A stretch of 32,000 nt of DNA. Origin: Nitrospira sp. Its GTDB lineage: Bacteria; Nitrospirota; Nitrospiria; Nitrospirales; Nitrospiraceae. Below, one piece after another: positions 6,911 through 26,661 of this stretch (positions within the stretch are counted from its first letter, which is position 1; every line of letters starts with the position of its first letter). The notes under the pieces were generated by a model. That model was not told the DNA's origin and searched no databases. It worked only from the letters and a program-made list of their open reading frames with translations. Location: assembly GCA_024760545.1 (NCBI GenBank), contig CP060501.1:2588036-2620035 (forward strand), given 5' to 3'. The position numbers and the translations under genes were made by a program.

Positions 6911-6945
6911 CTTTGAGGTGTGGTCGTTCGAACATGGGAGGCCCT

Positions 6946-7836: not shown

Positions 7837-7840
7837 TGAT

Positions 7841-7882
7841 GTGTCCGCAAAAGGCTGGGAAGTCCATCCCGACCCCTTTTAC
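7841..7882. repeat. Right terminal inverted repeat
   Basis: The sequence gtgtccgcaaaaggctgggaagtccatcccgaccccttttac starts 5 nt after the transposase stop codon. Confidence 0.85.
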
Positions 7883-7916
7883 TTCCCCCGACCCCTTTTC
7901 AGTCTCGACCCCTTTT
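7871..7916 (+). repeat. Three direct copies of GACCCCTTTT (spacing 19 and 17 bp)
   Basis: Copies at 7871-7880 (inside IRR), 7890-7899 and 7907-7916. A fourth copy in inverse orientation lies at 6871-6880 (inside IRL). Confidence 0.8.
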
Positions 7917-8932: not shown

Positions 8933-8969
8933 CCTTTGTCATAGGTAGCACATGCCGCCGACCACAACC

Positions 8970-8998
8970 ATTATATGTCCTTCTCAAGCATTTTCCAA
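8970..8998 (-). promoter_or_regulatory. Candidate sigma70 promoter for the MarR gene
   Basis: On the minus strand: TTGGAA (8998-8993), a 17-bp spacer, then a perfect TATAAT (8975-8970). This lies about 40 nt upstream of the marR start. Confidence 0.5.
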
Positions 8999-9002
8999 TG
9001 GC

Positions 9003-9032
9003 TTGACAACAGATATTAGCGCGTAGTATATG
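9003..9032 (+). promoter_or_regulatory. Candidate sigma70 promoter reading toward sORF/amoC
   Basis: Perfect TTGACA at 9003-9008, followed 15-18 bp later by the -10-like hexamers TAGTAT (9024-9029) and TATATG (9027-9032). Confidence 0.4.
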
Positions 9033-9066
9033 GGCATATGCCCATATTATACAGGCATATGCCCCT
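9028..9066. promoter_or_regulatory. Candidate MarR operator: 20-bp perfect palindrome plus a second GGCATATGCC core
   Basis: ATATGGGCATATGCCCATAT at 9028-9047 is a perfect palindrome. A second core, aGGCATATGCCcc, lies at 9053-9066. The site overlaps the -10 region of the rightward promoter. Confidence 0.5.
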
Positions 9067-9096
9067 ACTTTAATGCCTTAACCCAGGAGGTTGTAT

Positions 9097-9240
9097 ATGG
9101 CGCTACCTATGCGATCACCCAATGCGCGACGATCTGGCGCTTTAGAAGACACAGCTGGAGATGCAATGCGATTCAAATGGGGGTGGTTAATGGGGTTAGC
9201 CCTCGGAGCTTTAACGGCCGCCTATCGTTATGCAGGCTGA
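9097..9240 (+). CDS. Candidate 47-aa small membrane protein (below the ORF-track length threshold)
   Basis: AGGAGG at 9085-9090, 6 nt before ATG 9097. Translation: MALPMRSPNARRSGALEDTAGDAMRFKWGWLMGLALGALTAAYRYAG, a basic/acidic N-terminus followed by one C-terminal hydrophobic helix. Stop TGA at 9238-9240, 54 nt before amoC. Confidence 0.4.
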   Translation: MALPMRSPNARRSGALEDTAGDAMRFKWGWLMGLALGALTAAYRYAG

Positions 9241-9294
9241 ACAATCGGAGCGGGAAGAAGAGTGTTCCTTAATCTCACCAAGGAGGTCTGAATC

Positions 9295-10122
9295 ATGGCG
9301 TCCTCAAATCAACCAAACAGTGATAGGGGGTATGACATTTCTGAGTGGTACGACTCGAAGCCGGTGAAGATCGGCTGGCTGGCGATCCTGGGGATCGGGG
9401 TCTTTTGGGTGCTGTATCAACGGGCATTCGGGTACTCGCACGGGTTAGATTCCATGACCCCCGAGTTCGACTCGGTGTGGATGGGGCTGTGGCGGTTTAA
9501 CATTTTGGCAAACGCCGTGTTCTTTGCCACGACGATCGGGTGGATCTGGGTGACGCGCGATCGCAACCTCGCGAACCTTGCTCCCAAATTGGAGCTGAAG
9601 CGGTACTTTTATTGGATGGGCTGGCTGGTGTGCTACATGTGGGGCGTGTACTACGCGGGCAGCTATACGTTAGAGCAAGATGCGGCGTGGCATCAGGTGA
9701 TCATCCGGGACACGAGCTTCACGGCGAGCCACATTGTGGCGTTCTACGGGACGTTCCCGTTGTACATCACGTGCGGCGTGGCGACCTACCTGTATGCGCA
9801 GACACGGCTGCCATTGTACAGCCAGGCCACCTCATTTGCCTTAGTGGCAGCGGTGGTGGGGCCGATGTTCATTCTGCCAAACGTCGGACTCAACGAGTGG
9901 GGGCATGCGTTCTGGTTCGTCGATGAATTGTTCTCGGCCCCGTTGCACTGGGGCTTTGTGACGTTGGGCTGGTGCGGGTTGTTCGGCGCGGCAGGCGGCG
10001 TGGCGGCGCAGATCGTGAGCCGGATGTCGAATCTGGCGGACGTAATCTGGAACAACGCGCCGAAGAGTATCCTGGATCCGTTCCCCAGCCAGGTGGGCCC
10101 AGGAGTCAAGACCGTCTACTGA
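9295..10122 (+). CDS. amoC: Ammonia/particulate methane monooxygenase subunit C (AmoC/PmoC family), singleton copy
   Basis: Near-colinear with bacterial AmoC. Conserved strings: [95 protein letters not shown] lies 9 nt upstream. No amoA or amoB in the window. Confidence 0.95.
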
Positions 10123-10342
10123 GAGGCTCACGGGACGAGGAACATCAGTCTAACCTTTAGGCTGTCAGCGGGTGGGTGGTTCTTGCATATGAAGGTTAAG
10201 CAGAGCCCCCACCCGGTTGGGTGGAAGATGTCAGTCTTGAGTAGAACGCTCTGACCGCAAAACACTTTGTTGAACCTCTTGGCAAGAGTATCACGGCGAT
10301 AAGCTATTCGACGTAACCGGACGAAATCGTGAGAGGCTGCCC

Positions 10343-12148
10343 TTGAAAACCAAGACCAAAAAACTACTGTTTTGGACGGTGATAGGCCTGTTCATGATCC
10401 TACTTCTGAATCTATGGACGATGGCGCCCCCGGTATTGGAGGAACAGGTCATTTTTAGCGATTTTATGGCCAAGCTCGACCAGGGCGACATCGAGAAGGT
10501 CATCATCAAGGGACATCAGATCAGCGGTGTCTTAAAAGATAATTCCCAGCTTCGCACCTACGCGGCGGACTATCCCGATCTCGTCCAGCTGCTGCGAGAG
10601 AAGCACGTTCAGATCGAAGTCAAACGATCCGATCAAAACCCCTGGTATATCCAATTTCTCATGACCTGGGGGCCCTTCGTGCTCTTTCTGGGCCTGTTGC
10701 TGTTCTTCATGCGCCGGATGCAGACCGGGAACGCGGCCTTGTCCCTCGTGAAGAGCAAAGCTCGCATGCAGACGGATGAACGGAAAAAGGTGATGTTTTC
10801 CGATGTGGCGGGAATTGATGAGGCGAAAGACGAAGTACAGGAAACGGTTGAATTTCTGAAGGATCCGCGAAAGTTCCAGAAGCTAGGCGGACGCATTCCC
10901 AAGGGTGTGTTAGTCGTCGGCCCGCCCGGAACTGGGAAAACATTATTGGCGAAGGCGATTGCGGGCGAGGCGGGGGTCCCCTTCTTCAGCATCAGCGGAT
11001 CGGATTTTGTCGAAATGTTCGTAGGGGTCGGCGCCTCTCGCGTGCGGGATATGTTCGAGCAAGCGAAAAAGCACGCGCCCTGTATCATTTTTATCGATGA
11101 GATCGATGCCGTCGGACGATCGCGGGGAGCAGGGCTTGGCGGCGGAAACGATGAACGTGAGCAAACGCTCAACCAATTGCTGGTCGAAATGGATGGCTTT
11201 GATACGGCAGAGGGCATCATTTTGGTTGCCGCGACCAATCGGCCGGATGTGCTCGACCCGGCCTTGCTGAGGCCAGGCCGATTCGATCGGCAAGTAACGG
11301 TGAATCATCCGGACCTTCGAGGTCGTTCTGAGATCTTGAAGGTGCATACGAAGAACGTCCCGGTCGCAGTCGACGTAGCGCTAGAGAAGATTGCGAGAGG
11401 GACTCCCGGTTTCTCAGGCGCCGATTTGGAAAACTTGGTCAATGAGGCTGCCCTCTGGGCTGCTCGTCAGAATAAAACTGAAGTCGGAATCGTAGACTTC
11501 GAAATGGCCAAAGACAAGATTATGATGGGTGCCGAGCGCAAGAGCATGATGCTCACGGACGAAGAAAAACGGATCACCGCCTATCACGAGGCAGGCCATG
11601 CCTTGATGGCCACATTACTGCCGGGCACCGATCCGGTTCACAAAGTGTCGATTATTCCAAGAGGCCGGGCATTGGGAGTCACCATGCAGCTGCCCACCGA
11701 CGACCGCCATAATCATTCTAAGGAGTTTTTGTACAACACGCTGGCGATTCTCATGGGCGGCAGAGTCGCAGAAGAACTGGTGTTCGAACATGTCACAACC
11801 GGTGCAGGTAACGATTTAGAGCGGGCAACGGACCTCGCGCGTAAAATGGTTTGCGAATGGGGTATGAGTGAAAAGCTGGGGCCGCTGACGTTCGGGCCGA
11901 AAGAGGAATCGATGTTTCTGGGGCGCACCTTTGGGACTAAGCGTGATCTCAGTAATGCAATGGCATTGGAGATTGATCTGGAAATCAAACGCCTCATCAC
12001 AGAAAACTACGAGCGGAGCAAGCGCATCCTGACCGAGCACAGGGTGACCTTGAAGGCGCTGGCGGATGCGCTCTTGGAAAAAGAGGTGCTGGATGCGCTG
12101 GAGATCCACCAGATTGTTTCCAACTGCTCCCTAACAGTCCTTGCTTAA
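10343..12148 (+). CDS. ftsH: ATP-dependent zinc metalloprotease FtsH
   Basis: N-terminal TM helix, periplasmic loop and second TM helix. Walker A GPPGTGKT, Walker [32 protein letters not shown], zinc site HEAGHAL. TTG start. Confidence 0.95.
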
Positions 12149-12772
12149 AACCGGGGGGGCCCTACTATCTGGAAGTCGTATTCTTTTAGGCTCAGGTGCG
12201 TAGCGTCTCTTTTCCAGATAATGTTGATTCAGACTATGCAGCTCGCGCAGATTCTGAGATTCCTTCGCCTGAAAAGGCGGGGGAATCTCTGGTCTTTGTT
12301 ACGTCAAAGCATCGGTTCGCTTTTCCGACCGTTATATCATGACAGCGAAGGAACGGGGGCCCCGTGCTCTACCAGAGTGGGAACGGGGTGAGTTGCTTTT
12401 AACGGTCAAGGGCGTTTCACAATTTGATTCCAAACGGTCACCTGCAATCAGCACCAATAGCATAGAAGCTCTAGCCGACTGTCTAGAACCGAACCTACGC
12501 AGCAGCTTCCACAGTTCCATGAAACGGATAGCCCAGTCCACAACGCTATAAAAGACCCCCCATCCTGTTAGAAACAAACTAGCTGAAACCGACTACCCTC
12601 AGCTCTTATACGCGCTACCACTGTGGTGAATTTTGTGACAAAACCATGCAGGAACGGAAGGCAAGGTACGGGAAAGCATAGAGGCAATAGAGAGCGCTAA
12701 CCTGTCGTGATTGCGGCTAATATTGGGGAAACCGTTGCAGTAGCGAGCTTTTTTGAAAACCATCGATTTGAC

Positions 12773-12817
12773 CTTTTAAGGCGAGGGCCCTGGGTTCGAG
12801 TCCCAGCCGGCTCACCA
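12773..12817 (+). repeat. 3' half of a tRNA-Lys(UUU) gene (att-like direct repeat, copy 1); not an intact tRNA
   Basis: Parses exactly as anticodon loop CTTTTAA, 3' anticodon stem GGCGA, variable loop GGGCC, T-arm CTGGG-TTCGAGT-CCCAG, acceptor 3' strand CCGGCTC, discriminator A, CCA. The required 5' partners (TCGCC and GAGCCGG) are absent upstream. Confidence 0.8.
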
Positions 12818-13066
12818 CATTGGACAAAGGAAGCTTCGGCGGCGAGATTGTGAAAAGGATAAGGCTCTGACACGGTCGGACTGAATAAGAACTTCGATAC
12901 ATAAAGTTCAGCTATCTTTTAACTACTTGCCCAAAATGCAGTATATAAGGCCTTCTGATAATCTTCTGAAAACCACCCCTTGAGTAACGAAGTTGCAATA
13001 ATGGCACCCCGCGATTAGGTCGCTGACAGTCATCCGTTTTCTGCTTGCCTCTAGCACAGGGCAGGA

Positions 13067-14215
13067 TCAGATCCTTCTCGATCGTTGAAGCGACTTTTTG
13101 GAACGTCGATCCGACTTTGCCTTAACCTTGTCTGAGATCTGTTGGAGCGCATCGGGAATGTCGTCATTGTAATCGTCGAAGGTAATGAGCTCGAGCCCAA
13201 GCGTCGCGAATCCTTTCTCGAATTCCTTTTCTTCATAGTGGTAGATGCGCTCAAGCAACTGTTGAATTTGTCTAGGTTCCTTGTCCAGCATCTTCATCCT
13301 TCCCTTCGGAAACTTGGACAAATACTCTTCTGCCTTTCGTCGAATTTGCGCAAGCTCCGGACTGGGGTCGGTAATCGTCTTGAATTGCGGTTTTCTCATC
13401 AGAATGTAGTTTCTGAGAGGCAGCGGCTGCTGGCGGATCGAGTCGAGAATCCTGCGTGTGTTCCGATCCGAGAGCGACAGTCCAATCATCAGGCCAATCG
13501 AGCTGGTCAACTGGCTGACCTGCACGACATTGCCCCAAAAGAGCGCATCTTGAAAGGCCCGGTTGTATTGGTCTTCTGAGAAAATAATGTCTTCGTATTT
13601 GACGTCTTCAGCTTGATACGGAATGTAGCCGTGTACGTGATAGATGGGAATCTTGTCTGCCTCAAGCTGCTGGTTCCCCTTGTAGATGACCTGGAAGTTC
13701 TTACGGTTCGCGAGATGTGTGAGCCCAAGCTCGACAAGGTTGTCGTAATTATAGGTGACGATCGATCGAAGTCCTTTCTTCTGCGGGATCGATTGTCCGC
13801 AACAATCAACGATAGCCTTCAATGTCGAGTTTTGGTTCACCAGGTATTCTGGCAACCCGGTGATGTCTGATCCGAAGGCCTGACGGCCCAGCCCGGCATA
13901 AAGCGTCGTACTCAACATGGTGATGAAGTCTTTGCCTTCATACCACTGCTTAATCTTGCGAATGATGATATCGAGCGGCTCGTTTTTCTGTTGCAACACC
14001 CATTCTGCCAGCGCGAATAGGTAATTCGGGTAGGGCCTCATGTTGTTGATGAAGTCTTCGTCATGGAGCGTCGTGAAATAGAGTGCCTGAACGAGTTCCT
14101 CCCAGCTGGGCAAGCCATTTGGTTTGGAAACGCCGGCCCCGAGGTAAAGACTCAGTCGCCCACTTTGAAACGCTTCCTTCAACGCAGGAAGGCTTCCGTT
14201 GAACTGTACGGCCAT
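13067..14215 (-). CDS. Stand-alone SIR2_2-type (sirtuin-like, predicted NAD+-consuming) protein
   Basis: LSLYLGAGVSKPNGLPSWEELV (Gly-rich NAD site), IVTYNYDNLVE (conserved Asn), IPIYHVHGYIP (catalytic His), LMIGLSLSDRNTRRIL. These are colinear with the ThsA/DSR SIR2 motifs. About 100 aa of uncharacterised C-terminus ends in a basic tail. SD AAGGAG 8 nt upstream. Confidence 0.85.
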   Translation of the reverse strand: MAVQFNGSLPALKEAFQSGRLSLYLGAGVSKPNGLPSWEELVQALYFTTLHDEDFINNMRPYPNYLFALAEWVLQQKNEPLDIIIRKIKQWYEGKDFITMLSTTLYAGLGRQAFGSDITGLPEYLVNQNSTLKAIVDCCGQSIPQKKGLRSIVTYNYDNLVELGLTHLANRKNFQVIYKGNQQLEADKIPIYHVHGYIPYQAEDVKYEDIIFSEDQYNRAFQDALFWGNVVQVSQLTSSIGLMIGLSLSDRNTRRILDSIRQQPLPLRNYILMRKPQFKTITDPSPELAQIRRKAEEYLSKFPKGRMKMLDKEPRQIQQLLERIYHYEEKEFEKGFATLGLELITFDDYNDDIPDALQQISDKVKAKSDRRSKKSLQRSRRI

Positions 14216-14807
14216 TTCTTTAACTCCTTGCTAGACCGTCCGGGCATGTCGCCACTTGATTACGCGAAATCAACAAAGTGACTAAGGCTTTGCTTTTCGA
14301 AGTGTGCTGCCCCCAGTAGACTTAGAAAGCCCCACGAGGCGGTTCCATTATAGCTTTTCCCGATGCCTGTCAAGAAACCGTGATCAGCGAGATGGTGGGC
14401 ATTGACAGGCATAACGAGGAAATTCTTGGGGAATGAGGACTTCAAATGACCTGAATTCTTTGGAGAAATTATCGTGCTCAACACTTACGACCTGTTCAAA
14501 TCTTAATTGAGGCGCGACACTCGCCACCGCCAGCAAGGCCGCCTTCCAGCTATGGTCAAAGGGTCTGACCTCATATACTTCTCACGAGAACAGGTTCGCT
14601 CGGCCGTTTCCCCCGTCACGCGCAAGACCAGCCGTTGTACCTGTGGGGCGTGATCCTGGTTCATGGTGATGATCAGGCCGGCCGCCCGCTCACCCTCGAC
14701 GATCTGAACGCCCAACATGGAATTGCAGATGTAACCTCTAGAACTCGGGCAACGACTAAGAAGGTAAGGATGATGAGACGATCATCCCTGAGGCCAAACC
14801 GGAGGCG

Positions 14808-15107
14808 ATGGTGGAAGAGAGCCTGCGACGGGGCATCACGTGGGAGGAGCTCGACGTCCGGGCATGGGAGGACGCGATGGTGACTCATGTCATACATGAA
14901 GGAACGCTTCCTGACCTTGAAGTTCCACTGTTGGACTGTGTGGGCAAGCGATCACCGGTGCTGTGCGATCACCAGCACCCCATGGTGGCAATCGTGGTGA
15001 GGCAACGCCCGGAAATCATTTACGCGGGGTACCCTGAAGCGGGCCTCTTCCATTGTCCGATATGCGACCAGACTCGCCGCGTAACATTCACGCTGTCACC
15101 ACGATGA
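14808..15107 (+). CDS. Hypothetical 99-aa protein with Cys/His cluster (weak call)
   Basis: ORF with GGAGG 2 nt upstream. Contains DCVGKRSPVLCDHQH ... FHCPICDQ, a possible zinc ribbon. No family recognised. Confidence 0.3.
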   Translation: MVEESLRRGITWEELDVRAWEDAMVTHVIHEGTLPDLEVPLLDCVGKRSPVLCDHQHPMVAIVVRQRPEIIYAGYPEAGLFHCPICDQTRRVTFTLSPR

Positions 15108-15495
15108 CCTTTGGAGAGCCTTCGAAGAAGAGCGGGTTGATGATGGGGCGATGGTATTGGCACCGGCGCTGCCAGGCGCTGAGCCATTCCCGGCCCATCC
15201 ACCCTTTCCTCTTCCTCATTTCTCCAATGCATCAAGCTGGACGATCAGTCTGAGGAAGTCAGCCCATAGCCGCACCTGACTGGGGGTTCCCATCCATACA
15301 GGCCAAAACCGCACGAGCACCCTGTGCGGAAAGCAAGTGCCGCAAACAGAGTGACGATGCAGACGCCTGTGTTTCTTCACTCTCTGCGTTGCTGCTGGCG
15401 ATCGGCCCGTTGGTCTGGCTCTTGCAAAAACATCGGGCTGGGTTTCGGCGCTGTCGAGACGACTCGGAAGGGCATTCGGTCGCTCCTCGTCAAGA

Positions 15496-15693
15496 ATGGA
15501 GTCGCGATCACAACGAACGGAGGCGTTCGTGGTTCTGCGCTGGTTCATTCTTCTAGGGTCTGTGATGTTGTTCCTCGGGCTCTTGTTGATCATCGTCGTC
15601 TGCCTAAATGCGCGGTCCAAGTCTAAGTCCAACTTCTTCCTAGTTCCTGTCGGCATGGCCTCTATCGGAATGGCACTTGGCCTTTCACTGTAG
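15496..15693 (+). CDS. Hypothetical 65-aa two-helix membrane protein (weak call)
   Basis: Two hydrophobic helices, FVVLRWFILLGSVMLFLGLLLIIVVCL and FFLVPVGMASIGMALGLSL. No obvious SD. Confidence 0.3.
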   Translation: MESRSQRTEAFVVLRWFILLGSVMLFLGLLLIIVVCLNARSKSKSNFFLVPVGMASIGMALGLSL

Positions 15694-15907
15694 GTGGTTC
15701 GGATGGTTGGCGCAGCTAATGGAGATTCCTTCCCTGCTCCACTGGCTGGATCTGCCAGGACGGCGGGGTGTCTCTCATTGGTTTCTCGTAAGGGACATCC
15801 CCGCACGACCATGCTTTCACCGGCCTTTCGCACATTGCCGGACACAGTCCAGTCGAATTCTCAAGCACGAGGCGAGTCCTTTCACAATCAAACCTAAGGA
15901 GTACCTC

Positions 15908-16111
15908 ATGGTTTGTACACGATGCGGTGGGTTTACAGTCCATGATTATTTCTACGGTGCTACAGACTACTTTGCTTGGCAATGTTTGGCTTTCCGCTGC
16001 GTGAATTGCGGAGCGATCAGTAACATTCAATCCTTCGATTCAAGTAACCCAAGCGGCACGGGCAGCACGAGCCATTCACGAGCTCGACATGCAAATGTGG
16101 CGCGGGGATGA
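15908..16111 (+). CDS. Small zinc-ribbon protein (67 aa)
   Basis: AAGGAG 6 nt upstream of ATG 15908. The MVCTRCGG...FRCVNCGA pattern is CxxC-x27-CxxC. The upstream part of the ORF-track call (15677) lacks support. Confidence 0.5.
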   Translation: MVCTRCGGFTVHDYFYGATDYFAWQCLAFRCVNCGAISNIQSFDSSNPSGTGSTSHSRARHANVARG

Positions 16112-16195
16112 GCGGACTATTCATGATCACGTCTACGTGCACGTAGCCAGGTGTCATTCCCTGTCGCTACGCAGACACGAAAAGGTGGGAGAATC

Positions 16196-16462
16196 ATGGC
16201 TACAGAAACGTTCATCGATCGAGTTCGAACTGTCGTCAAGGGACAGAGCACCGGTTGTGCCATGGAAGAAGTGGTGGCTCTCTGTCCGGACTTGACATGG
16301 AATCAGGTGTTCCTCGCCATTGACGACTTAAGCCGGAGCGGAGAGATTCGAGTCACATTGGATGCCGACAGCGCCTATAGAATACAGATTCATCGTCCCG
16401 CACCAGATACCAGTGCGAAGGATCTCGATGAATCGACATCGAGGTGTGTGGTGAGATGTTGA
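16196..16462 (+). CDS. Small hypothetical protein (88 aa), possibly winged-helix-like
   Basis: GGTGGGAG 5 nt upstream of ATG 16196 (MATETFIDRV). Its stop overlaps the next gene's start in ATGTTGA, which suggests translational coupling. Confidence 0.55.
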   Translation: MATETFIDRVRTVVKGQSTGCAMEEVVALCPDLTWNQVFLAIDDLSRSGEIRVTLDADSAYRIQIHRPAPDTSAKDLDESTSRCVVRC

Positions 16463-16992
16463 CTATCGCATCAGCCAAGGCCCTGCCAATGCGACTTCTG
16501 GTGGCAGTAGGCGAATCCGAGCGCGCGTTGCATGCTGTGCGATATGTGGGATCGCTGCTGCAGCGTAGACCGGATGTCATCGTCACGCTCTTTCATGTCC
16601 TCAAACCCATGCCACGCGGCCTATTGGAGCATGGGGGATCTGAAAATCCTGACATGGAAGCAGAGCTGAGCACCCGTTTGAAGGAAGATCAGGAGACGTG
16701 GAAAAAGCAGGAACGAGAAGCACAATGCCCGACTCTCGAACGAGCCCATGAACTTTTGATGCGGGCTGGCTTTGACAAGAGTCGAGTCGCCCTAAAGTTT
16801 GGACATGAGGACAACATTGCGAATGCCATTCTCGATGAAGCGAGAATGGGACAGCACGACACGATTGTCGTGGGCCGCACCGATACGCCTGGAATCACAC
16901 GCATCTTCAGCAGCGGCATCACTGACCATCTACTGCGGGATGCGCGAGGCTTGGTCATCTGGATTATTACCCCCCGCTTGAGACAACTGTGA
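16444..16992 (+). CDS. Universal stress protein (UspA family)
   Basis: USP pattern: MRLLVAVGESERALHAVRYV ... VTLFHV ... ILDEARMGQHDTIVVGRTDTPGITRIFSSGITDHLLRDARGLVIWII. The likely start is ATG 16456. Confidence 0.8.
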   Translation: MCGEMLTIASAKALPMRLLVAVGESERALHAVRYVGSLLQRRPDVIVTLFHVLKPMPRGLLEHGGSENPDMEAELSTRLKEDQETWKKQEREAQCPTLERAHELLMRAGFDKSRVALKFGHEDNIANAILDEARMGQHDTIVVGRTDTPGITRIFSSGITDHLLRDARGLVIWIITPRLRQL

Positions 16993-17241
16993 GGACGTGA
17001 GTTGAGAGTGAAGTCCGGATGTATCATTCAGTTTGACTGCGGGGGAATCCTCCGACCCGGATATCGGGATCTATATACAACGCAACATTCAGCATGAAAC
17101 TAAGAGAGTAACGTGGAGCGATAACCCGCAAGCCCTTCCTGTGGCTGCAGGATCACTTTTCAGACGTGTGCCGTTCGTAACGGAGCATCAAAAGCTTCTA
17201 TGAATTCACAATGATTTATCGGTGAGATTCGGGAGGAAGAT

Positions 17242-17454
17242 ATGGCGAATGACAAAAGAGTAACTGCGCAGGCGGCCGTGGCCAAGTTTGTATCTGCTGC
17301 CGGTCCCATCGAGAGACACCTCCTGGAAGGAAAGCCGCTCACGGACGTGGAGCTTGATTCCATTGCAAACATATCTTTAGGATTTCAAATGGCCATTGAG
17401 GTGTGGAAGAGAACCAACGGCCTGCCCATTAAACTGCGTCGGCGCCCTTCGTGA
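17242..17454 (+). CDS. Hypothetical 70-aa protein
   Basis: GGGAGG 5 nt upstream of the ATG. No family recognised. Confidence 0.5.
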   Translation: MANDKRVTAQAAVAKFVSAAGPIERHLLEGKPLTDVELDSIANISLGFQMAIEVWKRTNGLPIKLRRRPS

Positions 17455-17859
17455 GGGCCAAACAGCGCGACATTTGTCATGGCTCGCCGCTTTGGACCAG
17501 AGACAGAACTTTCAAACGACCTTCCTCCTCAGTCCACCTGCCTAGCCTCCGTCGTCTTGCATTAACTAGGCAACGAACAGGTCTAAGAAGCGAAACAACT
17601 CGCAAATCCATTCTCCCTTAAATTGGCTCTAGCGAACTCTTCATCAGCCTGCCGCAAGATGTGTGACGGTTCGTAACGATGCCGTTGCGACGGTGATTTG
17701 CACAACCAACGCATGTCTGTTTTGAATTGGAGTGATGACCACCGATGTGTTATCACGTTACAACTCACTGTGTGGCGGACGGTCCCCTTCCTGCAGTAAT
17801 CGCCATATCATGGAAATGACGTTTCGAGAACTATTACAACCTGTCGTGGAGACGTAACA

Positions 17860-18030
17860 ATGCCCAAAGCCCGCAGTGCTGGCCAGTGTTATCGATGCGA
17901 AGCCGGAGATCGAGTCAGGATGACCTTCATGACGTGTAGCCGCTGCCGCCGGTATTTCTGTAGTGAGCACGGTTCCTCGCAATTGGAACAATGCGAAACA
18001 TGCCTTGAGGGCGGCGAAGAGATGGACTAG
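17860..18030 (+). CDS. Candidate 56-aa Cys-rich zinc-finger protein (below the ORF-track length threshold)
   Basis: ATG 17860 with GGAGA 8 nt upstream. Translation: MPKARSAGQCYRCEAGDRVRMTFMTCSRCRRYFCSEHGSSQLEQCETCLEGGEEMD. The pattern CxxC-x12-CxxC-x4-C-x2-H-x7-CxxC resembles a cross-braced zinc finger. Confidence 0.45.
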   Translation: MPKARSAGQCYRCEAGDRVRMTFMTCSRCRRYFCSEHGSSQLEQCETCLEGGEEMD

Positions 18031-18157
18031 GGGATTAGCAATCAATCGGCGCCGAATCCTTTTGCGATGAACGCACCGCGGTTGTGTGACAGGCAGGGGA
18101 GCTATCGCGGCAAGTTGAGCGCGACTCCCTACGATCCCGGCTCCACGAGCAACTCCT

Positions 18158-18496
18158 ATGGCCGGTATGGCTTTCCGTTTTCCCCTGATTTCATCAGCAA
18201 TCCGCATGTCCAACGCTCACGATGATATTGAGGAGAAGGTGAAGCTCATCACAAAGTGCCTAGCACAAATCATCTATGTGATCGAAATCGGGGAATATGG
18301 TGAACTCGTGGTCTGCAAGGATGGCAACAAGGTCTTCGAATTTGGATGCTTTCGTCCTGCCATGGAAGCCATGCGCATTGACCACCTCCAGCCGTTCATG
18401 GAAACCAAGGTCATTCCGACGATGCTTCAGTATCCAGGTCAAATGATCTACTTTGGGACTCATGGGCTCAGCGTCACGAAAAGGCATGTATGCTGA
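18158..18496 (+). CDS. Hypothetical protein (96-112 aa)
   Basis: ORF with non-biased composition. Internal start ATG 18206 (MSNAHDDIEEKV) is possible. No SD and no recognised family. Confidence 0.35.
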   Translation: MAGMAFRFPLISSAIRMSNAHDDIEEKVKLITKCLAQIIYVIEIGEYGELVVCKDGNKVFEFGCFRPAMEAMRIDHLQPFMETKVIPTMLQYPGQMIYFGTHGLSVTKRHVC

Positions 18497-19235
18497 TACC
18501 CATAGGAAGCGGGTCATTGAGTAAAGAAGCCGTTGGCACAAGACTGCTTATCGCCTCGCCTCCAATGACGGGATTTGATCTGCTCCCCTGATTTTGGACA
18601 GGTCGAATCGTGTGTATGACGACTCACGCCGCACGAGACTCGGCTGGCGACTGCATGGCCAATGCACTGTGCTGCGCCTGGTGATTGTAGTGTTCGATTC
18701 ACTGCGGGAGTTGACGCGCGACGGCGTCCACTGTTTCCAGACTCACCTTAGAGACATGATCCCGCATGAAACTTCCAAAGAATCCCGATGTGGCCGACTG
18801 ATCAAAACTAGGAAGAAACCCTTCCTTCAGCGGTAAGCCACTGATTAGTCCTCAGGAAATCCTGGCGGGAGGCCGACAAAGTTCCCAATGTTCAGGCAAA
18901 ATCGTTTACAAGTGATAGCATTGATAGGATACCTAATGTTACACTCCACATCTCTGTACTCGAGAAGTGCTTATGCATCCTCAAGGCCAAAGAGCCCGGT
19001 CATCTGACGTGACTGAGGCTTGGGTGATGACCCCGATCGCGCGCCGGGAACAACCGAGAGATCGGTGTTGCTCCGCGGTGGTTTTCCGTACGATTGTCTC
19101 TCCTGATCTCCCCGGGGAGTGCTCCCGCTCTGTTCATGATATCTGTCCGGAACATGTGGGGCACCTGGCGACCCAGCTCTCGAAGTCCTCGGCGCGGGGC
19201 CTCGCCTTCGCTCCTGTCTTGAGGAGTCTGATCCG

Positions 19236-21992
19236 ATGAGGGGCAAGCTGAGCCGTCTCAAATTTGTAGGGATCGTCCTGGCTCTGGCCGCCGTCTATGT
19301 CGTCGCGGCCAAACTCGGACTGATGTTGGCGTTTGTGCACGCCAGCGCCACGGCGGTGTGGCCACCCACAGGGATGACGCTGGCCGCGTTCCTGATCTTC
19401 CGTTATCGGGTCTGGCCAGGTATTTTCCTCGGCGCATTCCTGGCCAACCAACTCACCGCTGGGTCGATCCAGACGTCACTTGGTATCGCAATGGGCAACA
19501 CGCTTGAAGGACTCATAGGCGCATATCTGATGAACCGATATGCCAATGGTCAGCATGCCTTTTCCTCTGCACCCGGAGTGTTGAAGTTCGCGGCGCTTGC
19601 CGGATTGATAAGCACCACCATCAGTGCCACCTTCGGAGTGAGCAGTCTTGCAGCGGGCGGCTATGCGAGTTGGGCCAACTACCCCTCGATTTGGATGACT
19701 TGGTGGCTGGGCGATATCGCAGGGAACCTCCTCGTGGCTCCCACCCTCGTCCTGTGGTCACAACGTCCACAGGTGCGATGGAATCGTGACCAGGCGTTTG
19801 AAGCAGCCGTCTCGATGGTCGTACTCCTTAGCATGGGCCTGGCCCTATTCACCAATGTAGTCCAAGGGACCATAAAGAATTATCCGCTCGTGTTTCTGGT
19901 CGTCGCGAGCCTTGTCTGGATCGCCGCCCGCTTCAGTGAGCGTGACACCGTCACCGCGACGTTCCTGCTTTCAGGGATCGCCATATGGGGCACCCTGCAG
20001 GGCTCCGGGCCCTTTATCAGGGAGTCGCCGAATGAGTCCCTCCTGGTCTTGCAATCCTTTCTGTGTCTCATCGGCATCATGAGCTTGGCGCTGGCGGCGA
20101 GTATTTCAGAGAGGAAACGGGCCGAGGCCGCCGTGCGTGACACGCATGACGCATTGGAACAGAAAGTGACAGCACGAACGAGCGACCTCTCCGCGGCAAA
20201 CCGGGAGCTGGAAAAAGAAGTGGCCGAGCGTCGGCACACCGAAGCGCGATTGCATGAGCGAACGGATGCATTACGCGAGAGCGAAGCCCGAGTGACCGCC
20301 TATGCGCAGGAGCTGGAGCAGAAAAACCGCGACCTCGACCGGGCGTTAGTCGAGGCGCAAGCCGCCACACAAGCCAAATCCGCCTTCCTCGCCGTCATGA
20401 GCCATGAAATTCGTACGCCCCTGAACGCCATCATGGGGTGTAACGGACTCTTGCTCGATACACTCCTGACTCCCGCGCAGCAGGACTACGCCGAGGATGT
20501 GCAGCGGTCTAGCGAAGCCCTGCTCGACATCATCAACGACATTCTTGATTTCTCGAAGTTCGAGGCGGGTAGATTGACGTTTGAGACGATCGATTTTGAC
20601 CTCCGGACCACCGTCGAAGAGGCACTGGATCTCTTTGCCAAACCGGCACAGCGCAAGGGCCTGGAATTGGGTTGTCTCCTGCATGCGGAAGTGCCCACGG
20701 CATTACGGGGGGACCCCGGCCGATTGCATCAAATCCTTATCAATCTTATTGGCAATGCGGTCAAGTTCACCCAACAGGGCGAAGTGATGATGCATGTGAC
20801 ACGGAGCACGGCGACCGCCGAGCGCACCCTGATCGAATTTGCCGTGGTCGACACGGGGATCGGCATTGCCCCCGAGGTACAGGAGCGTCTGTTCAAACCG
20901 TTTACCCAGGCGGACACCTCGACCACGCGCCAGTTTGGCGGCACCGGACTGGGCCTTGCCATTTGCAAACAGCTCGTGGAACAGATGGGCGGGCAGATCG
21001 GCATAGAGAGTACGCTCGGTCAAGGAAGCACGTTCCGGTTTACGGTGTGGCTGACCCACCAGCAGACGCGCGCGACAGCATTGCCAAAAGGGTCTCTCGC
21101 GGGCCGGCGAGTCTGCATTGTGGATGACAATGCCACCAACCGACGTATCCTGGAACAATATGCGTTTCAGTGGGGTCTCCAAAGCGCCACCGCCTCGGAT
21201 GGATATGAAGCCCTCACTCTGCTGAAAGGAGCGGCGGCCCGAGGCGAACCCTTTGATGTGGCGATCCTCGATTTGCAGATGCCACGCATGAACGGACTGG
21301 AGTTGGCGCAGAAAATCAAATCTGATCCCCAGCTGACGGCTATCCCCCTGGTCTTACTGACCTCAATGGGAATGCGGGGGCAGGCTGAAGAAGCGAAACA
21401 GGTCGGGATTGCCGCCTACCTAACCAAGCCCGTCCATCGCACGGACTTATACGACTGTCTGACTATGATTGTGGACAGGCCGGCCCAGGCATCCCCTGAC
21501 GTACTGGAGGTGGGGGCCGCGAGTCGCCCCCGCGATGTGTTGGTGACCCGTCATGTCATTAAGGAAGCCGCCAAGGCGGCACGCCCCCGTATTCTCGTGG
21601 CAGAGGACAATATTGTGAACCAGAAAATCGCGGTGGTTCTGTTGGAAAAGCTCGGTTACCGGGCCGATGTCGTGGCTAACGGACTCGAAGCCGTCGACGC
21701 GGTCGCTCGAATCAGGTATGCCTTGGTCTTGATGGATTGCCAAATGCCCGAGATGGATGGTTGGGAGGCCACGGCGATGATCCGAAAAGAGGAAGGGGCA
21801 CGCGGAAGCCACCGGCTTCCCATCATCGCGATCACCGCGAACGCCATGCCTGGGGACCGTGAAAAGTGTCGGAAAGCAGGCATGGACGATTATCTCGCTA
21901 AGCCGGTGACGCTCGACGAGATTCGAGTCCTCTTGGCCCGATGGATTCCGGGCCATTCCGCATCGGCTGTACAAAAGGAGTCTGTGTCGTAG
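19236..21992 (+). CDS. Hybrid sensor histidine kinase: MASE1 membrane sensor, coiled coil, HisKA, HATPase_c, two receiver domains
   Basis: The N-terminal ~300 aa are polytopic with MASE1-like [33 protein letters not shown]-box [15 protein letters not shown] boxes [32 protein letters not shown]1: [32 protein letters not shown]2: [29 protein letters not shown]. Confidence 0.9.
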
Positions 21993-22307
21993 GAAAGTTG
22001 ATCCTGTTTTCTCTCTCGTCGATCATCTCAGAATATCTACCGATGTCTCCATTGAGATGATGTGGTCTTGGAGTACCGCGCATTCCCTTGTGCGTCTCTC
22101 CATAAGCTCTTCCTCGATTGGACAGGCCATATCGTTCATTTCTTCGGCCAGCTGCGCCAAGTCGTCAGACTGAGGCTGCTCTGGCCGCGTTCAGTGCACC
22201 GCGTCGCTGGGCCCATATAGAGAATTCTTGCTCACTGTATCCATGAGAGTTATTCATCGGTACCAATATACTCCCATCGGGAGATACCAATCATTGAATG
22301 TTTGTAA

Positions 22308-22352
22308 CTTTTAAGGCGAGGGCCCTGGGTTCGAGTCCCAGTCGGCTAACCA
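22308..22352 (+). repeat. 3' half of a tRNA-Lys(UUU) gene (att-like direct repeat, copy 2); not an intact tRNA
   Basis: 43/45 identical to 12773-12817. Both differences fall in the acceptor 3' strand (TCGGCTA versus CCGGCTC). No complementary 5' half upstream. Confidence 0.8.
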
Positions 22353-22541
22353 ACAAATTCAGTAGGTTTGTCATTGCACCAATTCGCCCATCTTCAAAAT
22401 TGTTCGTGTTCTGTCCGTGAACTATCCCCAACTGAACCCCATTCAGTCCCACATCATATCGTATCGCCCCCCATACAATAATAAATCAAAATTTCCTTCA
22501 CGCGAGCGATCTGGCTATGGTCTGTTCTAAATATGAAGCTT

Positions 22542-23357
22542 TCATTCGTGTTGTTCTTGATGGACGGGACACTCCGTCGTAGGAATGCTAAACAACTGGC
22601 TAAATCCGCCATCCACGACTAAATCAGCTCCTAAGACATAATTGGATTCATCACTGGCCAGATACACCGCGCAATCGGCAATGTCCCTAGCTGTTCCGAA
22701 CCGGCCTAAAGGCACTTTGTGGGTAATTAAGTCCTCCATACCCTTCAATTGCGCTTTCGGCAATCCGAGTCGTTCATAGAGAGGAGTGGCAATCGCCCCA
22801 GGACTGATACAATTGACCCTGATTTTCTTTTCAAGGAGAGCGGAAGAGAAGCTTCGGGCAAAGTTTCGAATGGCCGCTTTCGTGGCTGAGACAACACTGA
22901 GCAGCGGAGCACCGATTTCCGCGAGCCAGGCTCCGCTGAGTATGATGGAACCACCATTCTCAGGAAAATAGGAAATGGCCGATTGAACCGAAAGAAAAAC
23001 ACTTTTCAGGTTAGTATCAAATAACCGGCTTAGCTGCACCTCCGTTGTGCTACCAAGTGGCGTCAATTCAGCAATGCCAGCATTCAAGAAAAGGACATCC
23101 AGTCGGCTTTGCTCCTCTTGTACCCGTTTCAGCACTTGAACGAATCCGCTCGCATCATTCGAATCACAAGAGACCCCAGTTACTTTGCCATAACCCAAGG
23201 AATTCAAGTAATTGACTGTTGCCTCTATTGTTTCCACGTTTCTACCTGTGAAATATACTGTTGCCCCTTCCTCCAGAAAACGCTGGACGGTTTCTCTACC
23301 GATCCCACTATTGCCACCGGTCACCAGAGCCACCTTGTTATTAAGTCGATCACTCAT
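22542..23357 (-). CDS. Short-chain dehydrogenase/reductase (classical SDR fold) with a non-canonical active site
   Basis: TGGNSGIG cofactor motif and the LNAGI motif are present. The expected YxxxK reads VSATK, with Val at the catalytic Tyr position (codon 22890-22892). Confidence 0.85.
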   Translation of the reverse strand: MSDRLNNKVALVTGGNSGIGRETVQRFLEEGATVYFTGRNVETIEATVNYLNSLGYGKVTGVSCDSNDASGFVQVLKRVQEEQSRLDVLFLNAGIAELTPLGSTTEVQLSRLFDTNLKSVFLSVQSAISYFPENGGSIILSGAWLAEIGAPLLSVVSATKAAIRNFARSFSSALLEKKIRVNCISPGAIATPLYERLGLPKAQLKGMEDLITHKVPLGRFGTARDIADCAVYLASDESNYVLGADLVVDGGFSQLFSIPTTECPVHQEQHE

Positions 23358-23516
23358 TTTGTTTGTATCCTTTTGTGTTGTGTTTCACTCAAAACCAAGT
23401 CACCTTATTCACCTGATTTCACTTCCTTCTCTGTCGTGCTTTGGCACTACCGGATTCAGAGACCGAACAGGCTCGAGGCACCATCAAATGTGAAAACTTC
23501 ATAATCCCAGCTCTGC

Positions 23517-24131
23517 CTATAGGGTTAACCCTGTCGGCTGTAGCACGGCCAAGGCTTCGTCCTTCACGACCTCTGTCAGAGCACCAGTGTCGATATCATA
23601 GAAATAGCCAAAGATGTTCACGTGCAGCGGCGTCCCAGCGTGGGCTCGAATGAGTCCCGTATCTCGTTTTAGCGATGCTTCATAATCCTCGATGCAGATG
23701 CTTCCCGGGTCGTAGAGGTTTGAAATGTCCGCATGTTGTTCACGTTTATAGGCATCGATTATCCCTTTGGGGGTAAAAGTCGTCGCTCCACAATAGGAAT
23801 GATGCACCACGACGACATTTTTAAGGCCGAACAGATGCTGTGCGACGGTGATAGAACGTAGCGCATCAATCGCGCGGCCTCCGGCCACGATGACCGGGAA
23901 AAGTGTTGTTGAGCTGGCGACGCGCTTGCCAAACCCGTCAAGGATGACTTCACCTGGAAAGACTTCATTGTCCAACAGTTCGGCCACGGCATTGGGAATA
24001 GCCGCTGCTCGTGGGTCGTAACAATAAATGACAAGAGTCGTGAGTGGCACAGCATGCGAAAACGCCTCGCGGGTTTTGGCCTCATGAAATGTTGGGCTGG
24101 CGCTGAACGCATATCGGTCGAACTGGCTCAT
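23517..24131 (-). CDS. Beta-class carbonic anhydrase-like protein
   Basis: Zinc-ligand motifs CYDPR (CxDxR) and HHSYCGA (HxxC). SD AAGGAGG 7 nt upstream. Confidence 0.7.
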   Translation of the reverse strand: MSQFDRYAFSASPTFHEAKTREAFSHAVPLTTLVIYCYDPRAAAIPNAVAELLDNEVFPGEVILDGFGKRVASSTTLFPVIVAGGRAIDALRSITVAQHLFGLKNVVVVHHSYCGATTFTPKGIIDAYKREQHADISNLYDPGSICIEDYEASLKRDTGLIRAHAGTPLHVNIFGYFYDIDTGALTEVVKDEALAVLQPTGLTL

Positions 24132-24320
24132 GTGTGGGCCTCCTTGTTGAAAGTTGTGCGCTTGGGGCGAAGGATCAAGCCATCCAAAGTGGTCGGTGCA
24201 GTCACTGATTCCTCGCCCGGGCGCGGTTTCTTGCGTGAATTTAGATACAGTAGAGCATCAGGTCGTTAGCGCGACTCGAAGCACCTACCTAGTGCCTGGG
24301 AAATTGCATTGTTAGTCATG

Positions 24321-24347
24321 CTGGCGGCCTTTCTGCAGGGCCGCCAG
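24321..24347 (-). terminator. GC-rich hairpin just downstream of the ABM gene (possible terminator or processing site)
   Basis: CTGGCGGCC, a 9-nt loop, then GGCCGCCAG (9-bp perfect stem), 15 nt past the stop at 24362. There is no U-tract, so this is not a canonical intrinsic terminator. Confidence 0.3.
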
Positions 24348-24361
24348 CCGATCACACTCCT

Positions 24362-24679
24362 TTACGAGACAAGCACCTCCTCCGAAAGCTTGGTGCCCAG
24401 AATCTCTATTTTTTCTATGGAAGGCGGCACGGCTAGTAGATGTGGGGCGTTGGCAAAGAGGGCTTGAGCGATGGGCCCATTGAGATGAGCTTGCCTTCCC
24501 GACTCATCATGAAAAGCATCGAATACTGCGAAGGTGGAGGGACCCAGTCGCAGCGCGAACCACAGCGGAGTGGTGGTTTCTTGATTCGCTAATTCAAGAC
24601 CTTGTTTTAGGAAGGCGGCCGTTTCTTTTTCCTTCCCCGGTTTCGCTTCAAGTCGTACAAAGAATCCTACTGAAAGCAT
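24362..24679 (-). CDS. ABM-domain (antibiotic biosynthesis monooxygenase / YgiN-like) protein
   Basis: About 105 aa with a ferredoxin-like pattern: FFVRLEAKPGKEKETAAFLKQGLELANQE..TPLWFALRLGPSTFAVFDAFHDESGRQAH. SD AAAGGAG 8 nt before ATG 24679; the ORF-track start 24736 is less likely. Confidence 0.7.
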   Translation of the reverse strand: MLSVGFFVRLEAKPGKEKETAAFLKQGLELANQETTTPLWFALRLGPSTFAVFDAFHDESGRQAHLNGPIAQALFANAPHLLAVPPSIEKIEILGTKLSEEVLVS

Positions 24680-24838
24680 GTCTAATTCTCCTTTCAATCG
24701 TTTTTTAATGTTGTTTGAGATGCTGAACGTACTCAATTGATATGAGGTTCAAGCTACGGAGGGCCTCTGCTACTTAGAAACACAGAAGGCATCCTCCAGC
24801 TCCTTGCGTGGGTAGACCAGCTTCTCAAAGGAGCTCCT

Positions 24839-25147
24839 TTAGATTTCCTTTAGGGCGTGGGTCCCGTGGGTGATTGCGCCGCCCGCACGAAGTGCTGCCG
24901 CAGCGAGAATAGTTTCGGCGATCTCAGGTTCCGACGAGCCTGCTTCTCGTGCCCTCGCCACATGAAGCTCAATGCAATAGGGGCATTGAATTGTTAACGC
25001 TACCGCGACGGCAATCAGTTCTTTGTACTTTTTGGGAATGGCTCCCTCCGACCAAGCTGCCTTGTCAAAGGCCCAAAATGCCTTCGTGGCTTCAGGAGCG
25101 TGAACTTCCAACTGTTTTAATCGTCCAAGATTTTTCATTTCATACAT
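24839..25147 (-). CDS. Carboxymuconolactone decarboxylase (CMD/AhpD-like) family protein
   Basis: KYKELIAVAVALTIQCPYCIELHV carries the CMD-family CxxC core. SD AGGAGG 5 nt upstream. Confidence 0.8.
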   Translation of the reverse strand: MYEMKNLGRLKQLEVHAPEATKAFWAFDKAAWSEGAIPKKYKELIAVAVALTIQCPYCIELHVARAREAGSSEPEIAETILAAAALRAGGAITHGTHALKEI

Positions 25148-25328
25148 GCTGACCTCCTAGAGTGTGTGAGATTGAAAACATGTTGTGCAGGTTGCACAGT
25201 AAGAGTAACGGCGGGTTTTTGCCTTACCCGAATGACTGATTCTCTTAACAGGAGCGTGCTAAACTGCGTTTAATTTGATTGGATGACTGGCATACTTTGC
25301 CGAAACGCCCGCAGCGCAGCGGAATGAT

Positions 25329-26300
25329 ATGGATGTCTTGTCCGAGGTTCTTGAAGCCATCAAACTCGACGGCGCCGTGTTTTACAATGCGGAATTTTCA
25401 GCGCCCTGGTGCTTTTACTCCCCTCCTTCGACCGTGCTCGCGCCGTATCTGTCTGTCGGCGCCAAACATGTCATCATCTTCCACTTGCTGACCGACGGTC
25501 ACGGTTATGCAGAAGTCGAAGGCAATAGTCTTCCGCTTCCCCTCAGTGCCGGGGATTTGGTCATCCTTCCTCATGGAGACCCGCATGCATTGAGAAACGG
25601 GCCGGTGGTCAAACCGAGCGACAATGGAGAGCAGGTGAGACAAGTATTGGCGCAAGGTCTAAAGGTTGCGCGCATGGGTGGAGGCGGAGAAGTCGCCAAA
25701 TTCATCTGCGGATATATGGCGTGTGATCCGCAGCTTAGCCGGCTTATCCTGGGAGGGCTGCCACCCATTCTAAAGGTCAATGTGCGCACAGATGCCTCGA
25801 GCCATTGGCTCGAGCAAACCATCCGCTATTCAGTGGATCATGCAGATCGGTCTCAGCCCGGTAATCGAGCGGTGCTCGCACGGCTATCAGAAGTCTTGTT
25901 CATCGAGACGCTGCGGCAATATATCGCCGCACTCTCCCCTGAACAGAGAGGATGGTTGGCAGGCGTTCGTGACCCAGAAGTCGGAAGAGTCTTAGCCCTC
26001 TTGCATCGCAACCCCGCGCACCCTTGGACGATCGCATCCCTCACAAAAGAGATAGGGATTTCTCGATCCGTGCTGACGGAGCGATTTCGGCGATATCTCT
26101 CGGAAAGCCCGATGTCGTATCTTGCACGGTGGCGACTGTCCCTCGGAGCGCAACTCCTCCGATCTACGAGCAACAGTGTGGCCCATATTGCTGGTGAGGT
26201 CGGTTATGAATCGGAACCCTCCTTCAACCGCGCATTCAAACGGCAGTTCGGCCTTCCACCGGCCCGGTTCCGCAGCCAATCAAAAGCAACTGCACGCTGA
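25329..26300 (+). CDS. AraC-family transcriptional regulator (cupin-like N-terminal domain + HTH_18)
   Basis: The N-terminus (VFYNAEFSAPWCF...ILPHGDPHAL) is cupin/AraC-binding-like. The C-terminus has a double HTH: WTIASLTKEIGISRSVLTERFRRYLSESPMSYLARWRL...VAHIAGEVGYESEPSFNRAFKRQFGLPPARFR. Divergent from the four-gene cluster. Confidence 0.9.
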   Translation: MDVLSEVLEAIKLDGAVFYNAEFSAPWCFYSPPSTVLAPYLSVGAKHVIIFHLLTDGHGYAEVEGNSLPLPLSAGDLVILPHGDPHALRNGPVVKPSDNGEQVRQVLAQGLKVARMGGGGEVAKFICGYMACDPQLSRLILGGLPPILKVNVRTDASSHWLEQTIRYSVDHADRSQPGNRAVLARLSEVLFIETLRQYIAALSPEQRGWLAGVRDPEVGRVLALLHRNPAHPWTIASLTKEIGISRSVLTERFRRYLSESPMSYLARWRLSLGAQLLRSTSNSVAHIAGEVGYESEPSFNRAFKRQFGLPPARFRSQSKATAR

Positions 26301-26367
26301 CCTTCCCTCCGAAAACTAGATCATTGGGAAGGAAGTACTGCGGAGATGGGCTTAATAGGAGGGGGGC

Positions 26368-26625
26368 ATGACACGTAAACGGCACACGGAAGAACAGATT
26401 GTAAGCTCCCCGCAATCGTAGACAGCCAACAGGAGAACTTTCTGGCAGTATAGCCACCCTAACCAGGAGGTTTTCATGCGGCAGTCGAAGTTCACCGAAA
26501 CCCAAATCGTGTCGATCACTGCGCCAGATTCATTCGTTTCTCCGGGCCGTATCATCCGGCCTGAAGGTCACGGAGACCATGCTATGTGGGTGACCGACCT
26601 CATCCGATTTTTTGGAGGTATAGGG
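26368..26625 (+). pseudogene. Remnants of IS3-family orfA/orfB (two truncated N-termini)
   Basis: SD+ATG 26368 encodes MTRKRHTEEQIV, then stops after 17 codons. SD AGGAGG+ATG 26476 encodes MRQSKFTETQIVSI..., running into ..HAMWVTDLIRF, which resembles the first-Asp motif of OrfB. Both openings resemble IS3/IS407-type OrfA starts (M-x-K/R-x-R/K-F/H-T-E-E-Q-I). Confidence 0.55.
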
Positions 26626-26661
26626 AGTGCCGGCGTGCTGAACGAACTGCAAGTGAGGCTC

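Follow-up and report, generated by a model that had tools for sequence, protein, structure and literature searches.

Two tRNA-Lys(UUU) half-sites in Nitrospira sp. as probable seams of a tandem island array with integrase-less units

A 32,000-nucleotide stretch of a Nitrospira sp. genome (G000:C1:2588036-2620035, where C1 is contig CP060501.1; hereafter the window) contains two 45-bp direct repeats, at 12773-12817 and 22308-22352 and called att3 and att4 below, that reproduce the 3' part of a tRNA-Lys(UUU) gene. These repeats very probably mark the joins between genomic islands that were stacked in tandem by repeated site-specific integration into the 3' end of a single tRNA-Lys(UUU) gene, and the interval they bracket is composite. 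Its 9.5 kb comprises two units that resemble cis-mobilisable elements (CIMEs), bounded by attachment-site (att) sequence and without a recombinase of their own, one carrying a SIR2-domain gene and a universal stress protein (USP) gene, the other a conserved module (X) and a MASE1-domain histidine kinase. A sequence-only reading of the window had already taken the repeats for integration scars, and had treated the DNA between them as a single island, fixed and decayed.

The two copies are identical at 43/45 positions in direct orientation, and a repeat search (96% identity) gives no longer direct repeat for the window; their sequence is CTTTTAAGGCGAGGGCCCTGGGTTCGAGTCCCAG[C/T]CGGCT[C/A]ACCA, with the alternatives of att3 and att4 given in that order. 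When up to 14 mismatches are allowed, about 1e-4 matches to the 45-mer are expected by chance in the 90-kb region. ARAGORN predicts no tRNA in the whole window and Rfam gives no match on window 12000-23000 even at E<=1, in keeping with the earlier statement that neither repeat has a matching 5' half. Both differences fall, as had been noted, at the two ends of the 3' acceptor strand (its first and last position), and had been called consistent with different tRNA alleles. Such an origin is unlikely for the C-to-A change (C41A), which would set A opposite G1 of the acceptor stem; it was rejected as a functional tRNA allele because the G1-C72 pair would be broken, and is best read as decay. The other change, C35T, yields a G-U pair, recurs in displaced copies of the related genomes G004 and G080, and may be an element-borne variant.

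A search of the whole genome (4.54 Mb plus a 273-kb second contig) finds the 45-mer four times, always on the + strand of contig C1 (Table 1). The leftmost copy ends an intact tRNA-Lys(ttt) gene at C1 2537028-2537103, 63.7 kb left of the repeat at window 12773, which is where the sequence-only reading had expected it, if not lost: to the left and outside the window. From this gene to the resumption of conserved chromosome the array measures about 82 kb. Left to right it runs tRNA-Lys, island 1, att2, island 2, att3, the SIR2/USP segment and a 9-nt att remnant with X, and onward through a 112-aa open reading frame (ORF), the MASE1 kinase (4.8 kb from X to MASE1), att4 and an integrase-less island of about 8.9 kb to the core chromosome. 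Tyrosine integrases detected by a PF00589 genome scan lie directly after att1 and att2 and nowhere else from the tRNA to window 32000. They are 67% identical to each other, and both are intact, with Int_N and catalytic domains. The four direct copies, two of them abutted by integrases, bear out the view of the repeats as integration scars, and the two leftmost islands (34.3 and 29.4 kb), each starting with an intact integrase where the flagged interval has none, agree with the serial accretion that had been proposed. The interval was rightly said to lack an integrase: between att3 and att4 neither the PF00589 scan nor tblastn with int1, int2 and the integrase type of G036 gives a match, and the same scan and tblastn with three integrase types give no integrase remnants right of att4 (22353-31288). 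Relaxase and type IV secretion system domains are absent among the Pfam hits of the ORFs tested, the small ORFs not all having been checked for excisionase. Alignment by blastn and MAFFT shows that the right arm of the int1/int2-type islands, about 175 bp long, precedes att3, both truncated att copies and, in weaker form, att2. One such truncated copy lies inside each of islands 1 and 2 and, being accompanied by the arm, indicates that the array records more integrations than its four full sites show.

Table 1. Locations and properties of the sites, arms, genes and segments discussed (window coordinates unless a contig or genome is named)
Feature	Position	Strand	Description
att1	C1 2537059-2537103	+	last 45 nt of intact tRNA-Lys(ttt)
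int1	C1 2537156-2538415	-	starts 53 nt after att1
Truncated att copy	C1 2565589		CTTTTAAGACGAGAGCC; in island 1, behind right arm
att2	C1 2571387-2571431	+	exact copy of 45-mer
int2	C1 2571433-2572512	-	starts 2 nt after att2
Truncated att copy	C1 2577350		CTTTTAAGGCGAGA; in island 2, behind right arm
Right arm of int1/int2-type islands, ~175 bp	12598..12772	+	right end of island 2; contains GGGGAAACCGTTGCA..AGCGAGC
att3	C1 2600808-2600852 = window 12773-12817	+	exact copy, anticodon loop to CCA; attR of island 2
17-bp imperfect repeat, left copy	12809..12825	+	GGCTCACCACATTGGAC; last 9 nt of att plus 8 nt
SIR2/USP segment, ~4.66 kb	12826..17480	.	recombinase-less, gene-poor; few convincing ORFs in 14216-16150
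Stand-alone SIR2_2 protein, 382 aa	13067..14215	-	Pfam PF13289, E 7e-14
Universal stress protein gene	16444..16992	+	Pfam PF00582, E 4e-12
17-bp imperfect repeat, right copy	17481..17497	+	GGCTCGCCGCTTTGGAC; att remnant (last 9 nt, 7/9) fused to start of X
Module X, 570 bp	17490..18049	+	conserved block following tRNA-Lys or a half-site in many genus genomes
Cys-rich zinc-ribbon ORF within X, 56 aa	17860..18030	+	intact; 80-95% protein identity in 10 relatives
ORF, 112 aa	18158..18496	+	56%-identical paralogue in island 1 (blastn, tblastn)
MASE1 hybrid histidine kinase segment	18787..22079	+	gene 19236-21992, 918 aa; mobile cargo
MASE1 homologue, 95%	G116		other island-like region, beside homologue of own C1 2831322
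MASE1 homologue, 90.6%	G004, contig C60		between half-sites at 5348 and 10111
MASE1 homologue, 89%	G053		third context
Pre-att motif, 15 nt	22293..22307	+	ATTGAATGTTTGTAA; 13/15 in common with G004 unit likewise ending MASE1-att
att4	C1 2610343-2610387 = window 22308-22352	+	half-site, 2 mismatches (C35T, C41A); junction of MASE1 unit and next island
Left-arm remnant of third island type	22353..22438	+	homologous to tRNA-Lys/integrase spacer (71 nt) of G036, G080
Variable integrase-less DNA	22439..31288	.	SDR, carbonic-anhydrase-like, CMD and AraC genes, then 407-aa + 877-aa pair (Pfam)
PilZ-domain gene	31306..31998	-	Pfam; first right-hand gene syntenic with most relatives (blastn G116, G062, G004, G003)

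The idea of one bracketed island holds up poorly in comparison with relatives (a sample of 120 genus genomes, and a first sample of 18 same-genus relatives), as module X and an internal 17-bp junction repeat split the SIR2/USP segment from the X-MASE1 part. Window 17481-18049 matches sequence in more than 40 of the genus genomes at 80-87% identity. In at least 17 related genomes a full 45-nt site stands immediately before X, and it belongs to the intact tRNA-Lys in G011 and G117 and is a displaced half-site in G004, G116, G087, G042, G062 and others. Its right edge is sharp, at about 18050, in all genomes examined. In the window the X homology begins exactly at att position 37 (GGCTCGCCG vs GGCTCACCA), where relatives have a full att before X. 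The copies of the 17-bp repeat that flank the SIR2/USP segment are identical at 14/17 positions; the 8 nt past att3 (CATTGGAC) agree with the first 8 nt of X (CTTTGGAC) at 7/8, and the att3 match reaches 53 nt in BLAST against the att-X junction of G004. No full att is recognised upstream of X in the window, the 36 nt before the remnant being unrecognisable, with a local alignment score no better than that of 41% of random windows. A full decayed att at this place was dropped as a candidate, only the last 9 nt being recognisable and the rest scoring like random DNA.

The SIR2 gene occupies the place where islands 1 and 2 carry their integrase. Its product resembles the SIR2 domains of ThsA (9e-16) and LmuA (6e-14) in PADLOC, and PADLOC gives no match to a partner gene (ThsB TIR, LmuB SMC, HerA, pAgo and others) in seven neighbouring ORFs; without a partner, the 382-aa gene does not qualify for membership of Thoeris, Lamassu or another SIR2 defence system. 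In the roughly 1.9 kb beside it (14216-16150) no ORF is convincing and neither Pfam nor PADLOC gives a match; this stretch may represent a partner or integrase region of the SIR2/USP segment that has decayed. Among the 120 genus genomes, with two candidates per genome scored, the SIR2 gene has no match at all and the segment has no copy beside X or a half-site. Short stretches of it, such as the USP gene, match elsewhere in these genomes.

In the other unit, the kinase has the Pfam domain order MASE1-HisKA-HATPase_c-2xREC, and close homologues of 18787-22079 occur in just 3 of the 120 genomes, each in a different context (a protein search of genome contigs with the kinase is swamped by generic histidine-kinase cores). 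The homologue in G004 belongs to a 4.7-kb unit bounded by half-sites. It is 90.6% identical, against merely 70-84% for the flanking core DNA of G004, which points to horizontal movement of the MASE1 unit together with its att-side end. That end is shared as about 90 nt past the kinase stop codon plus the 15 nt just before att (own and G004 sequences compared: ATTGAATGnTTnTAA). The description of the island as fixed is not borne out, and the MASE1 part has moved between species. In place of X the G004 unit has (L036:5560-6334, in G004:C60) an apparent HEPN (DUF86)/nucleotidyltransferase toxin-antitoxin pair of the HEPN/MNT type, judged by eye, and its left half-site carries the same C35T as att4. 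The 112-aa ORF between X and the kinase has six more distant genome copies (30-56% protein identity, one in island 1) and represents a small dispersed family. Beyond the SIR2_2, USP and kinase genes, the ORFs of the att3-att4 interval have no Pfam match.

Nor is att4 the outer boundary of the array. Over the 72-86 nt that follow it, the window is 85-89% identical to the DNA behind the intact tRNA-Lys of G036 and G080, where a 411-aa tyrosine integrase, 24% identical to int1, starts 71 nt after the tRNA. In the window this homology ends where the 411-aa integrase gene would start, and an SDR gene comes next. Spacer homology without the integrase marks att4 as the place where the MASE1 unit meets an island of a third type, whose integrase would have been lost, and not as the edge of the array. 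No synteny with relatives is found from att4 to about window 31289, and the right flank 22353-26300, considered as conserved chromosome, proved not to be conserved. Conserved core resumes at about window 31289 (own C1 ~2619324), roughly 9 kb right of att4, with further core blocks at 2620691 and 2623491. In G011, G062, G004, G003, G116, G014, G017 and G036 the right-hand core is found 1.4-13 kb past X or the last half-site, so that the DNA right of att4 (22353-31288) is to be counted as variable as well. On the other side, the left flank of tRNA-Lys is matched in 16 of the 18 relatives of the first sample, at 75-85% identity.

Two or more copies of the 45-mer are carried by at least 26 of the 120 genus genomes, and the locus is thus a genus-wide integration hotspot. 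The layout in G011 (tRNA-Lys, X, about 3 kb, core) resembles an empty site. Alignment with relatives had been proposed as a check on the repeats as indel boundaries, and its outcome is mixed: arrays vary over the genus and the MASE1 part is att-bounded in G004, but no genome examined lacks exactly the att3-att4 interval.

From this anatomy (an intact target gene, two intact related integrases at attL-type junctions, element arms, homologies and the distribution over the genus) we infer a series of successive integrations. Each would have restored the tRNA and pushed the older 3'-end copy rightward, so that a half-site now closing one unit on its right would once have opened the next unit on its left. 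Integrase genes would have been lost from the three right-hand units. In the order of events that we prefer, att3 and att4 would first have bracketed a 4.86-kb X-MASE1 unit, like the 4.7-kb unit of G004. The SIR2/USP segment would have entered later, by insertion at the att3/X junction, leaving the 17-bp repeat; alternatively, it could have arrived by integration of the 45-bp type, after which most of the inner att copy was deleted.

Some observations weigh against this reconstruction. The att remnant on the X side is only 9 nt long, and the proposed inner boundary draws on homology to relatives and on the 7/8 match. A terminal att at the core junction was not found in searches with the 45-mer, its sub-blocks and the terminal junction of G036. 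The integrases int1 and int2 are intact and share the att core, yet att4 is without their conserved arm (absent by blastn and MAFFT), and mobilisation in trans by int1 or int2 is doubtful on these sequences. Finally, G036, G080 and G013 have an att-like copy (5 mismatches) joined to X near tRNA-Arg(cct), a different locus; X is therefore not simply native flank, and its history is not unique. In G036 (L051:7754-8258) and G080 (L052:6738-7224) a distance of about 1.6 kb separates the half-site and X from tRNA-Arg(cct), and the locus corresponds by homology to own C1 ~3.905 Mb; X of G013 (L046:5480-6047) adjoins a homologue of the same place. With the combination present there in three genomes, the half-site+X module has moved between loci.

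It is possible, if unlikely, that X is instead the ancestral flank of tRNA-Lys, that att3 or the 9-nt remnant is the true end of the array, and that the DNA right of X (MASE1, att4, SDR and onward) is a separate variable region, filled in by events not involving att, such as homologous recombination with foreign arrays or illegitimate insertion, that brought in a stray half-site by chance. The intact tRNA-Lys directly followed by X in G011 and G117 would be expected of an ancestral flank, as would the sharp right boundary of X and an X-to-core spacer that differs, from 1.4 to 13 kb, in every genome examined. Yet att4 has the same orientation as the other copies and is flanked by conserved element ends (on the MASE1 side the motif in common with G004, on the integrase side the spacer in common with G036 and G080), as accretion predicts, and the presence of X at another locus in three genomes also speaks against it.

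Entry of the 9.5 kb whole, as a single island that lost its integrase later and had X as captured flank in its attP region from the start, strikes us as distinctly improbable. Such an island would be bracketed by full-length direct repeats, as att3 and att4 are, and elements with att plus partial X (29-281 nt) do exist, in G004:C119, G087:C39, G042:C38 and at 58181 in G116. However, X does not stand beside att3 and lies 4.66 kb inside the interval with an att remnant of its own before it, no sampled genome holds SIR2/USP and MASE1 DNA together, and the left neighbours of the MASE1 homologues all differ. Decay of a cluster of tRNA-Lys genes, with the repeats as remnants of duplicated tRNAs and not integration scars, has nothing but sequence identity to the tRNA in its favour and is scarcely credible: we reject it, since every copy begins at the same anticodon-loop nucleotide and runs to the CCA, integrases abut two copies, the same 45-nt block stands beside islands in dozens of genomes, and 5' halves are absent at all displaced copies.

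Building on the tandem-array interpretation, one could speculate that the tRNA-Lys(UUU) locus of this genus is a shared cassette-collecting site, where recombinase-less units of 4-5 kb, the MASE1 kinase and SIR2/USP units among them, are exchanged between species and shuffled inside arrays by integrases acting in trans. The half-site+X combination might then be a portable landing pad that seeds arrays elsewhere, an idea prompted by its occurrence near tRNA-Arg(cct) in three genomes. We put this forward tentatively.

Islands 1 and 2 carry a varied cargo. Island 1 has, besides int1, an inovirus-like module of Zot (PF05707) and Rep_trans (PF02486) genes that adjoin the integrase (C1 2539820-2544463), followed by an apparent type I restriction-modification system with HsdR, HsdM and HsdS-like ORFs, judged from ORF translations and without a family search. 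Island 2 holds with int2 a patatin, an S1/P1 nuclease, a PMT_2 glycosyltransferase, an IS3 copy and a MarR-amoC-ftsH group, the last of these on the left side of the window. The singleton amoC/pmoC-family gene, with MarR and FtsH genes, occupies window 8480-12148, between the truncated att copy at C1 2577350 and att3; the group sits within island 2, and is therefore island cargo and not core chromosome. The IS3-family element (window 6868-7883) has an rve transposase at 6913-7836 and 43-nt inverted repeats at 6868-6910 and 7841-7883 that are 91% complementary. Directly adjoining this element, at 7836-8435, is a fragment of an outer-membrane efflux (OEP) gene that has been truncated.

Islands and prophages that target tRNA genes with tyrosine integrases, and whose identity block extends from the anticodon loop to the 3' end, form a class that was reportedly described by Williams in 2002. 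The array is like this class in having a block from anticodon loop to CCA, an integrase at the tRNA-proximal end reading towards the tRNA, and a tRNA restored at attL. Islands 1 and 2 show no difference from the class, whereas the flagged interval is without the integrase that defines it. Likewise, the array as a whole has the intact tRNA and 3' direct repeat of a tRNA-anchored island, while the interval has half-sites at both ends only; an integrase beside attL is present in islands 1 and 2 and absent from 12818-22307 and 22353-31288. What the interval shares with CIMEs is the retention of attL and attR (att3 exact, att4 at 43/45), although the SIR2/USP segment has just the 17-bp, 14/17 repeat, and the loss of its own integration and transfer genes (by PF00589, tblastn and Pfam on the tested ORFs).

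Tandem accretion with CIMEs is known from ICESt1/ICESt3-related elements of Streptococcus thermophilus (Pavlovic et al. 2004; Bellanger et al. 2011, via the review PMC5704250), and the review gives a three-step history of integration, decay to a CIME and new integration (PMC5704250). As in those elements, att-bounded units without integration or transfer genes share the 3' end of a single target gene with integrase-bearing elements, the two kinds being arranged in tandem. In contrast to them, the host here belongs to the Nitrospirota, no conjugation module is identified in the array and cis-mobilisation is at most hypothetical; a 17-bp junction repeat delimits one unit in place of the full 45-bp site, and the units carry at least two kinds of element end. 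The ssrA-specific islands of Dehalococcoides offer another parallel, with many direct repeats of the small-RNA 3' end within ~100 kb downstream (McMurdie et al. 2011, PMC3146451). Some of those tandem islands have an integration module beside attL and others, proposed to be CIMEs or fixed, do not (PMC3146451). The tandem 3'-end repeats and the mixed presence of integrases are common to both cases, cargo in Dehalococcoides varying by strain; a serine recombinase and a 20-bp tmRNA repeat are used there, tyrosine integrases and a 45-bp tRNA-Lys block here.

The finding is thus real, but of an ordinary kind: it adds one more example to the known tandem islands anchored at tRNA genes, with CIME-like members among them. 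In mechanism it goes no further than what is established for tandem accretion and CIMEs, and its value lies in the corrected map. The tRNA-Lys(UUU) gene is an integration hotspot across the genus that is used by at least two integrase families. In this nitrifier-type genome it anchors an 82-kb variable region, now mapped, in which amoC-ftsH, the MASE1 kinase, the SIR2 gene and the 877-aa/407-aa pair are cargo and not core. This status affects how the presence or absence of these genes across Nitrospira should be read.

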